From positions 12,487 to 76,486 of the forward strand of contig JAFGES010000095.1 of assembly GCA_016931455.1 (NCBI GenBank): DNA of 64,000 nucleotides. The letters are read 5' to 3'. Position numbers and translations under genes: made by a program. Origin of the DNA: Desulfobacterales bacterium. Lineage in GTDB: Bacteria > Desulfobacterota > Desulfobacteria > Desulfobacterales > JAHDSC01. Under the pieces are notes generated by a model. It saw only the letters and a list, made by a program, of their open reading frames with translations. It had not been told where the DNA came from and did no database searches. The stretch's first letter is position 1. Every line of letters begins with the position of its first letter. Of the stretch, positions 23,994-32,829 are shown one piece after another.

Positions 23994-24026
23994 GGCGTAT
24001 AACGGTTTATCAAAAAAATAAAAAAG

Positions 24027-24055
24027 TTGACAATATTTTTGTAAGCTGCTAAAAG
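24027..24055 (+). promoter_or_regulatory. Candidate sigma70-type promoter for the ilv leader
   Basis: TTGACA (24027-24032), a 17-nt spacer, then TAAAAG (24050-24055). Lies about 30 nt upstream of the leader ATG. Confidence 0.35.
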
Positions 24056-24083
24056 TAATCAAAATTTAATTTGGGTCATATAA

Positions 24084-24173
24084 ATGAAAAAATTTGCCGC
24101 CATTAACATCCTTGTTAGCCTTATTCTTGTCCTCGTAGCAAAAATACTTATCTGCTGCGAGGAAGAGGGTTGA
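24084..24173 (+). CDS. ilv operon leader peptide (29 aa, Ile/Leu/Val-rich)
   Basis: MKKFAAINILVSLILVLVAKILICCEEEG has 15 of 29 residues as I, L or V. The stop codon is embedded in a segment complementary to the 5' arm of the downstream terminator. The SD is weak. Confidence 0.6.
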   Translation: MKKFAAINILVSLILVLVAKILICCEEEG

Positions 24174-24208
24174 TAATGGCTTAATTTTAATATCTTAGAA
24201 GAAAAAAA

Positions 24209-24248
24209 ATCCGTTATCAGCCCTAAAAAGTTGATAACGGATTTTTTT
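24209..24248 (+). terminator. Rho-independent terminator (ilv attenuator)
   Basis: ATCCGTTATCA (24209-24219) pairs with TGATAACGGAT (24232-24242) across a 12-nt loop, followed by T7. Located between the leader peptide and ilvD. Confidence 0.7.
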
Positions 24249-24267
24249 ATTTATGGAGATTATGCGA

Positions 24268-25938
24268 ATGAAAAGCGATATTGCCAAAAAAGGTATTGAA
24301 AGGGCTCCGCACCGCTCACTTTTTAAAGCAATGGGATATACGGATGAAGAGATCCGGAAACCTTTGATTGGGATTGCCAATTCGGTTAACAGCATTGTTC
24401 CCGGCCATATTCATCTGGATAAAATAACGGAAGCGGTCAAAGCCGGTGTTTATATGGCCGGTGGTACTCCCATTGAATTTGGAACCATCGGTATCTGCGA
24501 TGGAATTGCAATGAACCATGTGGGCATGAAATATTCGCTTGCAAGTCGGGAGCTAATCGCCGACTCAATTGAAGTGATGGCCGTTGCGCATGCCTTCGAT
24601 GCCCTAGTGATGGTACCGAATTGCGATAAAATTATTCCCGGTATGTTGATGGCTGCTGCACGCTTGGACTTACCAACGATTCTTATTAGCGGAGGCCCAA
24701 TGTTAGCTGGAAATTACCCTGGAAAAGCAGGTGAAGAGAAAATCGACCTGATTACAGTCTTTGAATCCGTCGGCGCCGTGATTTCCGGTAAGATGACGGA
24801 AGAAGAGCTTAATTTAATCGAAGATGCTGCTTGCCCAACCTGTGGATCCTGTGCCGGGATGTTTACGGCCAACTCTATGAATTGTTTAACCGAAGCGATC
24901 GGCATGGGACTGCCCGGAAACGGAACAATTCCGGCGGTGATGTCGGCTCGTATCCGTTTGGCCAAGAAAGCAGGGATGCAAGTTATGGATCTTCTCAATA
25001 AAAATATAACTCCCAGAAAAATTATGACCGACCAGGCTTTTAAAAATGCACTGACGGTTGATATGGCACTCGGCTGTTCAACAAATACAGTTCTGCATTT
25101 AACCGCTATCGCAAAAGAAGCTCAGGTTCCGATAGATCTTAGACAGATCAATGCGATCAGCCGGAAGACGCCACATCTGTGTTCACTTAGCCCCGGCGGC
25201 AAACACCATCTGGAAGATTTAAATCGTGCAGGGGGTATTTCCGCAGTTATTAAAGAGCTGGCCCGATTAGGGCTTATTCATGAGTCGTGCCTGACGGTAA
25301 CCGGTAAAACCGTCCGGGAAAACATATCAGAAGCATGGATTTTGGATGCCGATGTTATTCGATCTTTAGATCATCCCTATCATCAAGAGGGCGGTTTGGC
25401 GATTCTTTTCGGAAATCTTGCTCCTCAAGGATGTGTGGTCAAACAATCTGCTGTTTTGGATGAAATGTTGTGTCATGAGGGACCTGCCAGGATATTTGAT
25501 TCGGAAGAAGATGCAAGCCGGGCGATTATGGATGGTAAAATTAATAAGGGTGATGTCGTCGTTATTCGTTATGAGGGGCCGATGGGTGGACCCGGAATGC
25601 GGGAGATGTTGACCCCGACTTCAGCTATTGCCGGCATGCAACTGGATGCTCATGTCGCCTTGCTTACAGACGGTCGTTTTTCAGGGGGAACCCGGGGGGC
25701 ATCCATTGGACATATTTCGCCCGAAGCGATGCAAGGGGGACCGATTGCAATTGTAGCCGAGGGAGATTTGATATCCATCGATATCCCTGCAAAAAAAATT
25801 ACACTCAAGCTTTCTGATGAGGAAATCAAAAAAAGGTTATCAAAGTGGTCTCCACCGGTACCGAAGATAACGCATGGCTATATGGCCAGATATTCTCGTA
25901 TGGTTTCTTCCGCCAGTGACGGCGCGGTAGTAAAATAG
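24268..25938 (+). CDS. ilvD: Dihydroxy-acid dehydratase
   Basis: IlvD/Edd family sequence ([33 protein letters not shown]). GGAGA lies 8 nt upstream of the ATG at 24268. The ORF-track start at 24253 sits inside the terminator tail. Confidence 0.95.
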
Positions 25939-26013
25939 GTGAATCTGTTTTCCGAAATTTTTAAAATATTATCAAGCTATTATATAACCTAAAGAAATAA
26001 CGAAGGATTTTTC

Positions 26014-27699
26014 ATGAAGCTCACAGGCGCACAAATCCTGATGGAGGTTCTTAAAGATGAAGGCGTTGAACTAATCTTTGGATATCCGGGGGCAGCGGCG
26101 ATTGATATTTATGATGAACTTGCAAAAACCGATATCCGCCATATATTGGTCCGCCATGAACAGGGGGCGGTTCATGCGGCTGATGGTTATGCCAGAGCCA
26201 GTGGCCAAGTAGGCGTCTGCCTGGTAACTTCCGGACCGGGGGCAACCAATACGGTTACTGGAATTGCATCGGCATATATGGATTCCATTCCTATTGTCGT
26301 TATCAGCGGCCAAGTTCCGACGCATCTTATTGGTAACGATGCTTTTCAGGAAGTAGATATTGTCGGCATTACAAGGCCATGTACCAAACACAACTATTTG
26401 GTCAAACATGCCGAGGATCTTGCAAGAATTATTAAAGAAGCTTTTTATATCGCTCGTTCCGGCCGTCCGGGTCCGGTTTTGGTTGATATACCCAAGGATG
26501 TTGCCAGAAAAAGAGTCAATTACAAAAATCAGATTGATGTGAAGATTAGGTCCTATAGTCCGACCTATAATCCGAATTTAAAGCAACTAAAAAAAATTAT
26601 AAATTTAATCAAAAGTTCTGAGAGACCCGTTATTTTTGCGGGTGGAGGTGTTATTTTATCAAAGTCTTCGAAAGATCTTACGGAATTTGCCCGTAAAACC
26701 TGTATTCCAGTGACAACTTCTCTGATGGGATTAGGGGCCTTTCCGGGAACGGATCCATTATCACTTGGAATGATCGGTATGCATGGTACCTATCGGGCGA
26801 ATAAATCCACCGGTGCTTGCGATCTGTTGATTGCCGTAGGCACTCGTTTTGATGACCGTGTCACCGGCAAGACTGCGGCTTTTGCTTCTCAGGCAAAAAT
26901 TGTTCATATTGATATTGATCCAACTTCAATCCGTAAAAATGTGCCGGTGACAATACCGGTTGTCGGCGATTGTAAAATTACCTTAGAGCATCTCAATCGC
27001 CTTATTGATGAAGTTGATTTTGGGGATATCAAACAAAAACAGAAAAAATGGCTGGATGAGATTGAACATTGGAAGAGCACAAAACCACTGGCCTATGTCC
27101 AAAGAGAATTGATTAAACCGCAATTTGTCGTTGAGAAACTTTACGAACTGACAAGGGGCGAAGCCATTATTACAACCGAGGTGGGCCAAAACCAAATGTG
27201 GACGGCTCAGTATTATCATTTTGATAAACCCGATCATTTCATTACATCAGGTGGCTTAGGCTGTATGGGATTCGGCCTGCCGGCTGCAATTGGTGCGCAA
27301 TTGGCCAAACCTGATAAAGTCGTCGTCGATGTTGCCGGTGACGGCAGCATTCAGATGAACATTCAGGAAATGGCGACTGCGGTCCAATACTGTCTTCCGA
27401 TCAAAGTCGTCATTTTGAATAATGGTTATCTGGGTATGGTCAGACAATGGCAGGAACTGTTTTATGAAAAACGCTATGCCTGCACAAGTATGGATCATAC
27501 ACCTGATTTTGTAAAACTGGCTGAGGCCTATGGGGCAGTCGGATTAAGAGCTACTAAACCGCAGGATGTTGAATCCGTTCTATCGGAAGGACTGTTAACC
27601 CCTAAGACCGTCATTATGGATTTTGTGGTTGATCCGGAAGAATGTGTTTATCCCATGGTTCCTGCAGGAGCTCCCATTACGGAAATGCTTCTGGTTTAA
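26014..27699 (+). CDS. ilvB: Acetolactate synthase large (catalytic) subunit
   Basis: ThDP-enzyme signature (GYPGAAAIDIYD, TSGPGATN, GLGCMGFGLPAAIGA, GDGSIQMNIQE). Confidence 0.9.
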   Translation: MKLTGAQILMEVLKDEGVELIFGYPGAAAIDIYDELAKTDIRHILVRHEQGAVHAADGYARASGQVGVCLVTSGPGATNTVTGIASAYMDSIPIVVISGQVPTHLIGNDAFQEVDIVGITRPCTKHNYLVKHAEDLARIIKEAFYIARSGRPGPVLVDIPKDVARKRVNYKNQIDVKIRSYSPTYNPNLKQLKKIINLIKSSERPVIFAGGGVILSKSSKDLTEFARKTCIPVTTSLMGLGAFPGTDPLSLGMIGMHGTYRANKSTGACDLLIAVGTRFDDRVTGKTAAFASQAKIVHIDIDPTSIRKNVPVTIPVVGDCKITLEHLNRLIDEVDFGDIKQKQKKWLDEIEHWKSTKPLAYVQRELIKPQFVVEKLYELTRGEAIITTEVGQNQMWTAQYYHFDKPDHFITSGGLGCMGFGLPAAIGAQLAKPDKVVVDVAGDGSIQMNIQEMATAVQYCLPIKVVILNNGYLGMVRQWQELFYEKRYACTSMDHTPDFVKLAEAYGAVGLRATKPQDVESVLSEGLLTPKTVIMDFVVDPEECVYPMVPAGAPITEMLLV

Positions 27700-27715
27700 A
27701 TAAAGGATTTTGAAC

Positions 27716-28210
27716 ATGTCGGAAGAAAAGAATATTCTTTCAATTCTGGTTGATAACGAGCCCGGCGTGCTGAGCCGGATCGTGGGGTTATTCAGCGGCA
27801 GAGGATATAACATTGAAAGTCTATGCGTCGCTGAAACCATGGATCCTCTCGTGTCCCGGATTACGATTACGACCATGGCCAATTTGCCTCTTGTCGAGCA
27901 AATAAAAAAGCAGCTCAATAAGCTTGTCAATGTGATCAAGGTACATGAACTCACCGGTACAAAGTTTGTTCAGAGGGAGCTGGTACTGATCAAGGTAAAA
28001 GCCAGACCTGAGCACCGCGCTGAAATTTTAAGAATTGTGGATATATTTAGGTGCAAAGTCATTGATGTCGGGTTGGAGCATTATACACTTGAAATAACCG
28101 GCGACGAAGACAAGCTGTCTGCGATATTAAGTCTTCTGAAACCGATAGGTATCAAAGAAATTGCCAGGACCGGCATTATTGCTATGTTCCGGGAACCGAA
28201 AAATAACTGA
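27716..28210 (+). CDS. ilvN: Acetolactate synthase small (regulatory) subunit
   Basis: ACT domain (ILSILVDNEPGVLSRIVGLFSGRGYNIESL). AAAGGA lies 8 nt upstream of the ATG at 27716. Confidence 0.9.
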   Translation: MSEEKNILSILVDNEPGVLSRIVGLFSGRGYNIESLCVAETMDPLVSRITITTMANLPLVEQIKKQLNKLVNVIKVHELTGTKFVQRELVLIKVKARPEHRAEILRIVDIFRCKVIDVGLEHYTLEITGDEDKLSAILSLLKPIGIKEIARTGIIAMFREPKNN

Positions 28211-28249
28211 CATATTTAATTTTTTAGCGATAGAATAAAGGAGAAAAAG

Positions 28250-29305
28250 ATGGCAAAAATTGATTTTGGCGGTGTTCTAGAAGAAGTGATCACCTCTGAA
28301 GAATTTTCACTTGAAAAAGCAAGGAAAGTCCTCAAAGATGAAAAAATTACGATACTCGGTTACGGTGTTCAAGGACCCGCTCAGGCTTTAAACCTCAAGG
28401 ATAATGGTTTTGAGGTGATCGTGGGACAACTTGAAGGGGATCAATACTGGAATCGAGCTGTTGCTGATGGATTTATCCCCGGTCAAACCCTTTTTCCGAT
28501 TGCGGAGGCTGCACGCAGGGGCACCGTTATTCAGTATCTTCTTTCAGATGCAGGACAGGTTGCAACCTGGCCGGAGGTTAAAAAATGTTTGAACCCGGGT
28601 GACGCACTTTACTTTTCACACGGATTTTCAATTGTTTACAAAGATCAAACCGGTATTGTACCGCCTGATAATGTTGATGTCATTTTGGTCGCGCCAAAAG
28701 GATCGGGACGAACGGTACGTTCCAATTTTTTAGATGGTAGCGGTATCAATTCAAGTTTTGCCGTACACCAGGATTTTACCGGTAAAGCAAGAGAGCGCAC
28801 ACTTGCCCTGGGTATCGGTATCGGATCGGGTTATCTTTTTCCGACTACTTTTGAAAAAGAGGTTTTCAGCGATCTAACCGGTGAGCGAGGCGTTTTAATG
28901 GGATGCTTGGCAGGTGTGATGGAAGCTCAGTATAATTTATTGCGAAAGCATGGGCATAGTCCAAGTGAAGCCTTTAATGAGACGGTTGAAGAACTGACTC
29001 AGAGTCTTATCCGTCTAGTTGCTGAAAATGGTATGGACTGGATGTTTTCAAACTGCAGCACCACTGCTCAACGAGGGGCATTGGATTGGGCTCCGAGATT
29101 TAGGGACGCGGTTGTACCTCTGTTTGACGAACTCTATGAAAGCGTTATGAGTGGAAAAGAAACAAAAAGGGTTATTGAAGCCAATAGTGCTCCTGATTAT
29201 CTGATAAAGTTACAAAAGGAACTCGATACGATTAAGAATTCGGAAATGTGGAAAGCCGGTGCCGCAGTTCGGGCCTTAAGACCGGAAAACCGCAATAAAA
29301 AATAA
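28250..29305 (+). CDS. ilvC: Ketol-acid reductoisomerase
   Basis: ILGYGVQGPAQALNLKDNG Rossmann motif and IlvC C-terminal knotted-domain sequence. Confidence 0.95.
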   Translation: MAKIDFGGVLEEVITSEEFSLEKARKVLKDEKITILGYGVQGPAQALNLKDNGFEVIVGQLEGDQYWNRAVADGFIPGQTLFPIAEAARRGTVIQYLLSDAGQVATWPEVKKCLNPGDALYFSHGFSIVYKDQTGIVPPDNVDVILVAPKGSGRTVRSNFLDGSGINSSFAVHQDFTGKARERTLALGIGIGSGYLFPTTFEKEVFSDLTGERGVLMGCLAGVMEAQYNLLRKHGHSPSEAFNETVEELTQSLIRLVAENGMDWMFSNCSTTAQRGALDWAPRFRDAVVPLFDELYESVMSGKETKRVIEANSAPDYLIKLQKELDTIKNSEMWKAGAAVRALRPENRNKK

Positions 29306-29325
29306 AACTCTGAGGCAGTCACGTA

Positions 29326-29352
29326 CAAGGCTGGAAATGAAAACCAGCCTTG
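29326..29352 (+). other. Intercistronic stem-loop between ilvC and cimA
   Basis: CAAGGCTGG (29326-29334) pairs with CCAGCCTTG (29344-29352), a perfect 9-bp stem with a 9-nt loop. No U-tract follows. Confidence 0.5.
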
Positions 29353-29415
29353 CACGCCAATACTGCTTTGAAATACAGCAAGAAGAAAGTTTTTATTGAT
29401 AGGAAAGACAATGTA

Positions 29416-31011
29416 ATGGAACCGATAATGTTATACGATACAACCTTAAGAGATGGCACCCAAGGCGAAAACATCAGTTTTAGTGCTGAAGAAAAGATTA
29501 AAATTGCACAAAGACTCGATGACCTTGGAATACATTATATTGAGGGGGGGTGGCCCGGTTCCAATCCTAGGGATATGCATTTTTTTGATTTGGCGCGGCA
29601 GATAGAATTTAAAACCGCCCGGTTAACCGCCTTTGGCGCGACGCACCGACCCGGCATTGACCCTGCTGAAGATGAAAATTTAAAAGCGCTGATTGATAGT
29701 GGAGCCTCTTCGGTTACAATTTTCGGCAAGAGTTGGGATCTTCATGTGGAACAGGTCATGCATATTAATTTGGAAACAAATTTGTCAATGATATATGAAA
29801 CCATTGCATATCTAAAAACATATCATCGCGAGGTGATCTATGATGCCGAGCATTTTTTTGATGGTTATAAGGAAAATAGTGAATATGCAATAAAGACTCT
29901 GATGGCAGCTTTAAAAGGTGGCGCAGATATGATTGTTCTCTGTGACACAAATGGTGGAAGCCTTCCGTTGGAGGTGGAATCGATGGTTCGTGAAGTCCGC
30001 AAGATATTTTCGGAGAAATATGCTTCGATAACAAAAGAAATGTCGCTTAAACTCGGCATTCACGCTCATAACGACTGTGGGTTGGCGGTTGCTAATTCAC
30101 TATCGGCGGTAAATGCCGGCGTGGTGATGGTTCAGGGGACGATTAACGGATATGGAGAACGATGTGGGAATACGGATCTCACCTCAATTATTCCAATTAT
30201 TTGCCTTAAGATGAACTTTCCATGTATTTCCAAAAAAAATCTTAAAAAACTAAAAAAAATTTCAAGATTCGTCAGTGAAACGGCCAACATGATTCCCTTA
30301 AATACTCGGCCTTTTGTCGGTAAAAGCGCTTTTGCTCATAAAGGGGGTATCCATGTGAGTGCAATTATGAAAACACCTAGAACATACGAACATATGGCTC
30401 CTGAGCTTGTGGGAAATGAACGCCGCGTTTTGGTGTCTGATTTATCCGGTAAAAGCAATGTTGAATTCAAAGCCAAGGAATTAGGGGTTGAACTTGGATT
30501 TAATGGTTTTGACAGCCGTAGAATTGTTAACGAAATTAAAAACTTGGAACAGCAAGGATATCAGTTTGACGTTGCGGATGGATCATTCAAGATCCTGATA
30601 GAAAAATTTACTGAACAGTTCAAACCTCTATTTGAACTGGAATCTTTTAGGGTAACAATCGAGAAAGACAAAGATTTACCGTGTTCCGCCCATGCGACCA
30701 TAAAAATATCAGTGGGGGACCAAAAAGAGATCACCGCCGCTGAAGGGCATGGGCCGGTTAGTGCATTGGATAATGCATTGCGCAAAGCGCTGAATAAATT
30801 TTTTCCGGATCTGGATTCCATGCGCCTCGTTGATTTTAAGGTTCGTGTTATCGATGGGCGTGAAGGCACAGCAGCTAGAGTTCGAGTTTTCATAGAATCA
30901 AGGGACCATGATCACATTTGGAGCACAATTGGTGTTTCAGAAGATATCATCGAAGCTAGTTGGCAGGCACTTGCCGATAGCTTTCAGTATAAATTGTCAA
31001 AGGAAAGATAG
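29416..31011 (+). CDS. cimA: Citramalate synthase-type LeuA/CimA family enzyme
   Basis: MLYDTTLRDGTQGENISFS, HAHNDCGLAVANS and a long C-terminal regulatory domain, as in the Geobacter-type CimA subfamily. AGGAAAG lies 9 nt upstream of the ATG at 29416. Confidence 0.7.
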   Translation: MEPIMLYDTTLRDGTQGENISFSAEEKIKIAQRLDDLGIHYIEGGWPGSNPRDMHFFDLARQIEFKTARLTAFGATHRPGIDPAEDENLKALIDSGASSVTIFGKSWDLHVEQVMHINLETNLSMIYETIAYLKTYHREVIYDAEHFFDGYKENSEYAIKTLMAALKGGADMIVLCDTNGGSLPLEVESMVREVRKIFSEKYASITKEMSLKLGIHAHNDCGLAVANSLSAVNAGVVMVQGTINGYGERCGNTDLTSIIPIICLKMNFPCISKKNLKKLKKISRFVSETANMIPLNTRPFVGKSAFAHKGGIHVSAIMKTPRTYEHMAPELVGNERRVLVSDLSGKSNVEFKAKELGVELGFNGFDSRRIVNEIKNLEQQGYQFDVADGSFKILIEKFTEQFKPLFELESFRVTIEKDKDLPCSAHATIKISVGDQKEITAAEGHGPVSALDNALRKALNKFFPDLDSMRLVDFKVRVIDGREGTAARVRVFIESRDHDHIWSTIGVSEDIIEASWQALADSFQYKLSKER

Positions 31012-31290
31012 TCTCCAAGGTTCCTTTAATATACCATTTCTTATATACGAAGCGGTCTGAAATAAATCAAAATTATAGAATAAAAGAAAGAAGGTATCTC
31101 TTGAACAGGGGGAGAAAGAAAAATGCCGCGGGGCAAAATTTTGATACTGTCCCGCGGCCGATGCTTACTTTGATTTTGCTCACTGAATTGCGGTAATTTG
31201 TAGTCGGTTAAGGGATCGTATGGACTAACGACGGTAATGATTCATTAATCGATTAAGATGTTATAATTTTATAAAATATGGAGCGAAATC

Positions 31291-32829
31291 ATGAAAGAAT
31301 GCGTCATTATTTTTGATACCACTTTAAGGGATGGTGAGCAATCTCCGGGTGCCAGCATGAATACGGGTGAAAAAATGCGATTGGCCACCCAATTGGAAAA
31401 TCTGGGTGTTGATGTATTGGAAGCGGGGTTTCCTGCAGCATCTGAAGGTGATTTTGAGGCTGTTTCACAAATAGCAGGAAAATTAAAACATACCGAAGTG
31501 GCTGCGCTGGCACGAACTACTAAAAGTGATATCGATTGTGCTTGGAAAGCCATCGAACATGCAGCAAAGCCCAGAATACATACTTTTATAGCCACCTCTG
31601 ATATCCATATGGATTATAAACTGAATATGTCAAGAGATGAGGTGGTAAAAGCGGCTGTCGAAGCAGTTAAATATGCAAAGTCTTTTACGGACAACGTTGA
31701 ATTTTCTGCTGAGGATGGATCCCGTAGTGATCGAGATTTTCTGTGCAGAATTTTTGAAGCTGCCATTGAGGCCGGCGCCACAACCGTTAATCTGCCCGAT
31801 ACAGTCGGCTATGCGATTCCTCAGGAATTCGGCGATCTCGTGAGATATATCATGACCCACACGTCAAACATCCATAAGGCGGTTTTGAGCGTTCATTGTC
31901 ATAACGATCTTGGCCTTGCAACAGCCAATACGATTGCAGCAATTAGTGCCGGCGCAAGGCAGGCCGAAGTCACGATTAACGGAATCGGAGAAAGGGCCGG
32001 CAATACCTCTTTGGAAGAAGTCGTAATGGCATTGCATACGAGACCTAATTTTTTGCCGGTAACTACCCATATCAAAACCAATCATATCTATCCGGTCAGC
32101 CGGCAGGTCAGTATGATAACCGGTATCATGGTTCAACCCAACAAGGCGATTGTGGGGGCTAATGCATTTGCCCACGAGGCGGGTATTCATCAGGACGGCA
32201 TGCTGAAAAATCCCATGACATATGAGATTATGAAGCCGGAAACCATCGGTCTGAGCGAAAATAAACTTGTCTTGGGTAAACATTCGGGCAGACATGCTCT
32301 TCGGGCACATTTAAAGGATTTAGGTTATGATTTGAGTGATGAAGAATTAAAGATTGTTTTTTCAAAATTCAAGGAGCTGGCGGACAAGAAGAAAATTGTA
32401 GTGGATGAGGATTTAGAAGTGATTGTGACGGAAGGTGTCTTGCGGACTGCCGAGGTTTTTTCTTTGGAATACTTGAATGTGATCAGCGGCACAACGGTCC
32501 TACCCATGGCAAGTGTCAAAATGAAGGTCAATGGAAGATTGGTCCAAGGCGCTCGCTATGGAAACGGTCCCATCGATGCCACTTTTAACACCATCGCAGA
32601 TCTGACGGGCGAGAAGGCTGAACTGCTTCGGTTTTCAATTGCCGCGCTGACCGGTGGTACGGATGCTCAAGGGGAGGTTACGGTTCGATTGAGAGAAAAT
32701 GGTTTGATCGCACTCGGCAGGGGAGCTGATCCGGATATTATTACAGCCAGTGCTAAAGCCTATCTAAATGGATTAAACCGACTGGAATACTTGAAAGCCC
32801 ATCCGATCAAATCGATGGAAACCTTGTAA
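31291..32829 (+). CDS. leuA: 2-isopropylmalate synthase
   Basis: IFDTTLRDGEQSPG, HCHNDLGLATANT and a LeuA dimerisation/regulatory C-terminal domain. Confidence 0.9.
   Translation: MKECVIIFDTTLRDGEQSPGASMNTGEKMRLATQLENLGVDVLEAGFPAASEGDFEAVSQIAGKLKHTEVAALARTTKSDIDCAWKAIEHAAKPRIHTFIATSDIHMDYKLNMSRDEVVKAAVEAVKYAKSFTDNVEFSAEDGSRSDRDFLCRIFEAAIEAGATTVNLPDTVGYAIPQEFGDLVRYIMTHTSNIHKAVLSVHCHNDLGLATANTIAAISAGARQAEVTINGIGERAGNTSLEEVVMALHTRPNFLPVTTHIKTNHIYPVSRQVSMITGIMVQPNKAIVGANAFAHEAGIHQDGMLKNPMTYEIMKPETIGLSENKLVLGKHSGRHALRAHLKDLGYDLSDEELKIVFSKFKELADKKKIVVDEDLEVIVTEGVLRTAEVFSLEYLNVISGTTVLPMASVKMKVNGRLVQGARYGNGPIDATFNTIADLTGEKAELLRFSIAALTGGTDAQGEVTVRLRENGLIALGRGADPDIITASAKAYLNGLNRLEYLKAHPIKSMETL

Follow-up and report, generated by a model that had tools for sequence, protein, structure and literature searches.

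The region directly upstream of ilvD in the stretch of DNA analysed here (the window, 64,000 nt of contig JAFGES010000095.1 from a Desulfobacterales bacterium) very probably contains a ribosome-mediated (leader-peptide) transcription attenuator of ilvD-ilvB-ilvN-ilvC-cimA-leuA, judging from its sequence. This reading, put forward in a preliminary description of the DNA, is borne out by an ORF rich in Ile, Leu and Val codons, a terminator and an antiterminator that are conserved across Desulfobacterales, by a leader stop codon that keeps its place on or next to the antiterminator strand and by the tie of the element to ilv genes. The comparative sequences give good support to a predicted family of such attenuators that spans the whole order.

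Leader ORF and alternative pairings in the window

The features of the region are collected in Table 1. The leader ORF of 29 codons is found exactly where it had been described. Its Ile, Leu and Val codons number 13 on recounting and not 15 as claimed earlier (five Ile, five Leu and three Val), and they span approximately codons 7–23. The preliminary description had proposed folding as a check, and the 206 nt from 24050 to 24255 indeed fold far better than shuffled sequences, with a minimum free energy (MFE) of −58.2 kcal/mol compared with −33.2 ± 4.2 kcal/mol (z = −5.9; none of 200 shuffles is as good).

Table 1. Features of the leader region and of the candidate operon downstream (positions in the window)
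Feature	Position	Strand	Remarks
Promoter region	24012–24055	+	A-rich tract 24012–24026; −35 TTGACA 24027–24032; 17-nt spacer; −10-like TAAAAG 24050–24055
Leader ORF	24084–24173	+	29 codons + UGA, MKKFAAINILVSLILVLVAKILICCEEEG; 13 I/L/V codons; sequence reading
Region 1	24099–24121	+	Anti-antiterminator 5' strand; leader codons 6–13; pairs of the MFE
Leader hairpin, upper stem	24130–24163	+	24130–24140 with 24153–24163; possible pause hairpin
Region 2	24167–24179	+	Antiterminator 5' strand, GGGUUGAUAAUGG; holds stop UGA 24171–24173, then in-frame UAA
Region 3	24211–24223	+	CCGUUAUCAGCCC; pairs with region 2 (13 bp) or region 4
Intrinsic terminator	24209–24248	+	Stem 24209–24221 with 24230–24242; 8-nt loop; U-run 24242–24248
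ilvD RBS and start	24255–24270	+	GGAGA 24255–24259, ATG 24268; sequence reading and public gene call
Candidate operon	24268–32829	+	Six genes; NCBIfam matches above curated cut-offs
ilvD	24268–25938	+	NCBIfam above curated cut-off
ilvB	26014–27699	+	NCBIfam above curated cut-off
ilvN	27710–28210	+	NCBIfam above curated cut-off
ilvC	28250–29305	+	NCBIfam above curated cut-off
cimA	29350–31011	+	NCBIfam above curated cut-off
leuA	31291–32829	+	NCBIfam above curated cut-off

The antiterminator is formed by GGGUUGAUAAUGG and CCGUUAUCAGCCC and counts 13 bp including two G·U pairs. The strands given for it previously, GGGUUGAUAA (24167–24176) and UUAUCAGCCC (24214–24223), do pair and the first does contain the stop codon, but the helix is three pairs longer than the 10 bp originally described. 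The terminator arms 24209–24219 and 24232–24242 are likewise correct, while the stem continues for two more pairs up to C24221–G24230. The U7 run that was reported to follow it amounts to seven T (24242–24248) only if one that is already placed in the stem is counted. Antiterminator and terminator share nucleotides 24211–24221 and are mutually exclusive.

The upper stem of the leader hairpin has as its core the pairing of CCUCGUAGCA (24131–24140) with UGCUGCGAGG (24153–24162), 10 bp with one G·U, in agreement with the leader-internal stem of the preliminary description. All three pairings had been considered mutually exclusive, which holds for antiterminator and terminator but not for this stem: it has no nucleotide in common with the antiterminator, and the two coexist in the MFE structure of a transcript ending at 24228. 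What excludes the antiterminator is the lower extension of the leader hairpin, where region 1 pairs with 24167–24180. The resulting 1:2 hairpin (24099–24180) is long and interrupted, sequesters the 5' strand of the antiterminator and overlaps the regulatory codons. Its lower part can be drawn in two overlapping registers. In the MFE structure GCCAU (24099–24103) and UGUUAGCCU (24113–24121) pair with 24167–24180, and in the other register CCAUUAACAUCC (24100–24111), a near-copy of region 3, pairs with region 2. Each register is about 80% paired in relatives, and the partner of the lower stem is thus ambiguous.

Folded in isolation, the 1:2, 2:3 and 3:4 hairpins have energies of −31.3, −18.3 and −23.7 kcal/mol, respectively. 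When a ribosome footprint of 30 nt is imposed, the antiterminator can form with the A site at codons 1–25 and is blocked with the A site from codon 26 through to the stop codon. With footprints at codons 6–23, a range that includes all 13 Ile, Leu and Val codons, the 1:2 hairpin loses its 5' arm. The MFE structure of the full-length leader is the terminator form for every ribosome position that was modelled, so that the switch would have to be a kinetic one, a property that folding cannot show.

The terminator ends 20 nt before the start of ilvD and is preceded by an A-tract (24202–24209) that can lengthen its stem. A simple terminator scan called no terminator at 24209–24248, presumably because the A-tract pairs with the U-tract and leaves no free T-run by the definition of the scan. 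With these flanks, the segment 24201–24250 fits the motif pattern whichever strand is read and appears bidirectional, yet no gene converges on it. No second copy of the motif was found in the window or in the fetched loci; double hits correspond to one palindromic site read on both strands. Immediately behind the stop codon of the upstream lactonase gene, GGCGTATAACGG (23994–24005) resembles the 3' arm of the terminator, GCTGATAACGG, with two mismatches. It may have been left behind by duplication of the arm, or the likeness may be due to chance.

Conservation of the leader ORF

Relatives were taken from the best 80 genomic IlvD relatives (75–84% protein identity), which are all labelled as Desulfobacterales, by the older equivalent name Deltaproteobacteria or by a higher rank that includes them (Thermodesulfobacteriota, Proteobacteria/Pseudomonadota) and include Desulfonema magnum, Desulfatirhabdium and Desulfosudis. 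Counting was restricted to the 74 loci in which 260 nt or more of sequence before ilvD was available. An ORF rich in Ile, Leu and Val codons, approximately 26–35 codons long and ending about 90–110 nt before ilvD, is present in 70 of these 74 Desulfobacterales loci, and the peptides follow the consensus MKN..AINNLISLIIILVVGVLxCCEARG. In four exceptions ilvD lies directly behind a cimA-like gene, where no leader is expected. One locus (L053) was missed by the ORF filter and does have the leader.

Some Desulfobacterales ilvD loci deviate. L024 (2670–3000) has a truncated leader ORF, no region 2 and an intact terminator. ORF and terminator are separated by some 150 nt of inserted DNA that bears long inverted repeats, and the copy appears decayed or disrupted. 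L003 and L044 (2670–3000 in each) are without the element. In L003 a TTGACA and another long hairpin, GAGCGATTTTTT...AAAAAATCGCTC, take its place. An Rfam search of the leaderless ilvD loci matched only a tRNA and returned nothing for these stretches of L003 and L044.

An equivalent ORF starting with ATG accompanies 135 of the 141 non-redundant instances of the motif (median length 30 codons; on average 6.3 Ile, 4.9 Leu and 3.3 Val per leader). Read in frame, these 135 leaders have an Ile, Leu and Val content of 47.6%. The two alternative frames reach 22.5% and 8.6% and are interrupted by a mean of 3.1 and 1.7 stop codons, respectively. The possibility that the ORF is an artefact of AT-rich DNA is rejected on the ground that these two frames are closed.

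The position of the stop codon is bound to the RNA. It is a UGA within the region 2 motif in 101 of the 135 leaders and lies 12–15 nt from the start of the motif in 25 more; with the range widened to 4–15 nt, the leaders outside the 101 number 29. In 22 leaders a different reading frame is used and the stop immediately follows region 2 on its 3' side, with the RNA motif kept, so that the same nucleotides end the peptide as ...G-stop or as ...GLIMA-stop depending on the frame. An RNA motif that stays constant whatever the frame, with the ORF always ending on or beside it, is what attenuation would require and is not predicted by a function of the peptide.

At the leader ATGs of the window and of the related loci no Shine–Dalgarno signal above background is seen. 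The duplex energy with the anti-Shine–Dalgarno sequence averages −2.6 kcal/mol, compared with −3.4 kcal/mol for random ATGs and −8.1 kcal/mol for ilvD starts, which have strong sites. Since a canonical Shine–Dalgarno sequence is lacking, initiation of translation at the leader ATG is assumed; this contrast suggests that it may be Shine–Dalgarno-independent, on a predicted A/U-rich 5' untranslated region of about 20 nt.

Conservation and covariation of the RNA

An alignment of 67 sequences contains two near-invariant blocks, GGGTTGATAATGGC and CCGTTATCAGCC...GCTGATAACGG-T(n), with a more variable ORF between them. The U-run follows the terminator in all aligned relatives. The preliminary description held that loss of the pairings in relatives would speak against an attenuator; they are instead retained, with 96.4% of the alignment cells paired for the terminator and 95.5% for the antiterminator, compared with 15–53% and 20–61% for slid partners. 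Six of the 13 terminator pairs are changed on both sides. The upper stem is 82% paired and seven of nine pairs vary on both sides, and the anti-antiterminator hairpin is 81% paired (34–53% for slid partners) or 79.7% in the alternative register, with an overall range for slid partners of 22–53%.

The last three pairs of the antiterminator use nucleotides of the terminator loop and are thus free of constraint from the terminator. Covariation had been named earlier as a further check, and compensatory changes are indeed present in the antiterminator outside the terminator stem. Among 136 distinct sequences, GUG/CAC is found in 13, GCGG/CCGC in three and GAGG/CCUC in two, corresponding to changes from G–C to U–A, C–G and A–U, respectively, and an A is matched by a U at the adjacent pair in two; these sequences may stem from a few clades, so that the counts exceed the number of independent events. 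Because the covarying positions sit in the terminator loop, the changes are specific to the antiterminator. Little further covariation is available, as regions 2–4 are near-invariant: CCGUUAUC and the matching arm GAUAACGG are practically fixed across the order, even though IlvD itself has diverged to about 75–84% identity. The more than 130 aligned instances could seed an RNA-family model.

Association with ilv genes in metagenomes

Metagenome contigs were scanned with the pattern TTGATAATGG-N(20–50)-CCGTTATCAG, which is blind to the downstream gene. The 120 stretches retrieved comprise 94 real instances and 26 chance matches without a terminator. The real instances stand before ilvD (42), before ilvB (44), before a leuA-like gene (one), at contig ends (five) or before other genes (two). 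One of these three genes (ilvD, ilvB or leuA-like) is thus next downstream in 87 of the 89 instances in which the downstream gene is readable. Conservation of the ORF independently of ilv genes, which the preliminary description had listed as contrary evidence, is therefore not what is seen. The lactonase gene that lies upstream in the window is the upstream neighbour in none of 87 cases, and the upstream genes vary. A constant ilv gene on one side and a variable gene on the other argue strongly against both a terminator of the upstream gene and a peptide gene independent of ilv.

Two further loci stand apart. In L120 (7350–9763) the genes that come after this leader and terminator encode an HTH-cupin regulator and an AMP-binding acyl-CoA synthetase in place of ilv products, and the attenuator may have been recruited to another function there. 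L161 (9700–10060) has a divergent copy of regions 2–4 before a leuA/cimA-like gene, with no obvious ORF rich in Ile, Leu and Val codons upstream.

Promoter and candidate operon

The −10-like hexamer of the putative promoter is directly preceded by TGC. In 124 of 130 related loci TTGAC, mostly within AAAAAGCTTGACA, is found at most 120 nt 5' of the leader ATG, with a modal distance of about 59 nt. From this conserved position we infer a transcription start near 24062, about 20 nt 5' of the leader ORF, and it implies a short A/U-rich 5' untranslated region of that length and a terminated leader RNA of probably about 185 nt.

The ilvD start at 24268 that was implied by the end coordinate of the element in the preliminary description is the most likely one and is favoured by the ribosome-binding site and the public gene call. 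The longest ilvD ORF (561 amino acids) begins at 24253, and an exact look-up returned no record for it. The 556-residue form from ATG 24268 was retrieved in the same way as the gene called in a public assembly. Judging by their common strand and spacing, the six genes from ilvD to leuA are probably co-transcribed. The gap between cimA and leuA (31012–31290) is 280 nt of non-coding DNA with an 11-bp G+C-rich hairpin at about 31125–31158, a modest excess of folding (z = −2.8) and no Rfam match, and it might contain a separate control element or promoter for leuA.

Proposed mechanism and alternative explanations

We propose that read-through into the operon would be set by how much charged Ile-, Leu- and Val-tRNA is available. 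Transcription would begin about 20 nt before the leader ORF, and the early leader codons (24099–24140) would fold onto 24153–24180, such that the long hairpin hides GGGUUGAUAAUGG of region 2. A ribosome that stalls at any of the 13 Ile, Leu or Val codons (codons 7–23) would unwind the 5' arm of this hairpin. The freed region 2 could then pair with the emerging CCGUUAUCAGCCC of region 3, the terminator would be prevented and RNA polymerase would enter ilvD. A ribosome that reaches the UGA would instead cover region 2, leaving region 3 to pair with region 4, and transcription would terminate at about 24248. If the leader is not translated, the 1:2 hairpin would persist and termination would be expected as well. 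The sequence elements with their conservation and covariation, their geometry and their link to ilv genes are observed, while translation of the ORF, the transcription start, the order in which the hairpins fold during transcription and the response to amino acids are predicted.

A terminator/antiterminator switch could be real and yet be set by an RNA-binding protein, a small ligand or uncharged tRNA, with an ORF that is incidental or secondary. We consider this quite unlikely. It would suit regions 2–4 that are almost invariant across the whole order, beyond what pairing demands, and a leader ATG with no detectable Shine–Dalgarno sequence. At a threshold as loose as E = 10 the leader matches no T-box, riboswitch or further Rfam family; at this level cmscan lists no hit to the T-box model, which covers the specifier loop as well as the conserved T-box sequence. 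The open frame, the richness in Ile, Leu and Val in that frame only and the stop codon placed on region 2 in two different frames would all be left unexplained. The near-invariance can moreover be understood without an extra factor, since region 3 pairs with regions 2 and 4 and region 2 pairs with regions 1 and 3, so that a change in region 2 or region 3 would need compensation in two partner strands. The same near-invariance is the reason to consider a second input added to the ribosome, in the form of a protein or RNA acting in trans on the terminator or antiterminator, or of the hydrophobic leader peptide itself acting in trans, as is reported for the leader peptide peTrpL of Sinorhizobium (PMC7298713). 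If so, the element would be a dual-input attenuator and not a plain ribosome sensor, which we regard as improbable.

The ORF might also be the gene of an independent small hydrophobic membrane protein with its own terminator, located upstream of ilvD by chance. The peptide does have the appearance of a single transmembrane helix, and where public gene callers pick it up it is annotated as 'hypothetical protein'. Such a gene is nonetheless very unlikely given that 87 of 89 metagenome instances precede ilvD, ilvB or a leuA-like gene with varying genes upstream, that the 3' end of the ORF follows the RNA motif and not the peptide sequence, and that the antiterminator pairing would have no role, yet covaries. 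Still less plausible, and in our view highly improbable, is that the inverted repeat CCGTTATCAGC...GCTGATAACGG is a DNA operator of a dimeric repressor or the bidirectional-looking terminator of the upstream gene. Symmetry and high conservation of the half-sites would suit this reading, as would the flanking A- and T-tracts that make the hairpin symmetric on both strands. Against it, a U-run is invariably present behind the hairpin on the ilv strand, conservation does not extend to the upstream gene and the promoter sits between that gene and the hairpin. On the last two grounds, assignment of the hairpin to the upstream lactonase gene as its terminator was rejected. Spacer positions between the half-sites also covary with region 2, 45 nt upstream, for which a DNA operator has no need. 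The leader-peptide attenuator thus remains the preferred reading.

Comparison with known systems

Profile searches place the element outside the described families. The peptide of the window has no Pfam or NCBIfam match and none of the leader peptides tested scores above a cut-off; the leader of Desulfonema magnum reaches E = 9e-4 and 19.1 bits with the Pfam family IlvGEDA_leader, below its cut-off of 25. In Rfam searches of the leader and of the whole window no family reaches its gathering score and no ilv-associated family appears even at E = 10. The only leader families listed, His_leader on the + strand and Thr_leader on the − strand, are far below their gathering cut-offs.

In the searchable literature, which does not extend to the survey of Lopatovskaya et al. 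(2010) and any prediction that this may contain, the element is undescribed for delta-proteobacteria or Desulfobacterales, and Rodionov et al. (2004), on delta-proteobacterial regulation, do not mention ilv attenuation. The remark in the preliminary description that such attenuators are reported mainly from gamma- and alpha-proteobacteria is reasonable in this light. What the sequences point to is a known mechanism in a new lineage-specific family, a result that appears solid and useful for annotation and is mechanistically unsurprising; it changes no principle. The Desulfobacterales, which are sulfate reducers and alkane or ethane degraders known mostly from metagenome bins, gain a concrete candidate for the regulation of branched-chain amino acid synthesis, and a 'hypothetical protein' of about 30 residues that keeps appearing in their annotations is accounted for.

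The nearest functional counterparts are the E. coli leaders of ilvGMEDA (ilvL) and ilvBN (ivbL). They likewise have a short ORF, about 30 codons long and dense in codons for Ile, Leu and Val (multivalent control), and alternative antiterminator and terminator hairpins before genes of branched-chain amino acid biosynthesis. In sequence they are not significantly related to the present element. The present lineage is Thermodesulfobacteriota, the operon begins with ilvD or ilvB and includes cimA, the leader stop codon lies within the antiterminator strand and a clear Shine–Dalgarno sequence is lacking.

By analogy, the four-segment logic would be that of the E. coli trp attenuator, with 1:2, 2:3 and 3:4 pairings and a ribosome at the stop codon that masks region 2. 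In the trp attenuator the terminator exceeds the antiterminator in stability and the outcome is kinetic; the order of the 2:3 and 3:4 energies found here agrees with this. In contrast to the two adjacent Trp codons of trp, the 13 Ile, Leu and Val codons are dispersed, and 1:2 is a long interrupted hairpin of which the upper stem itself does not compete with 2:3.

Closer in target are the Corynebacterium ilvB-II, ilvB-OMG and Leptospira ilvB motifs, conserved RNAs before ilv genes with upstream ORFs rich in branched-chain amino acid codons and terminator/antiterminator logic (PMC10272879). They are unrelated in sequence to the Desulfobacterales family, which is larger (more than 130 distinct instances) and far more conserved in sequence. 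Leaders of this type are also known from other Actinobacteria (PMC1262725) and from Staphylococcus and Listeria. The motifs of PMC10272879 show that upstream ORFs of this kind recur in many phyla as lineage-specific sequence families. The Desulfobacterales element supports this recurrence and adds a lineage beyond the classical examples from gamma- and alpha-proteobacteria, Actinobacteria and Firmicutes.
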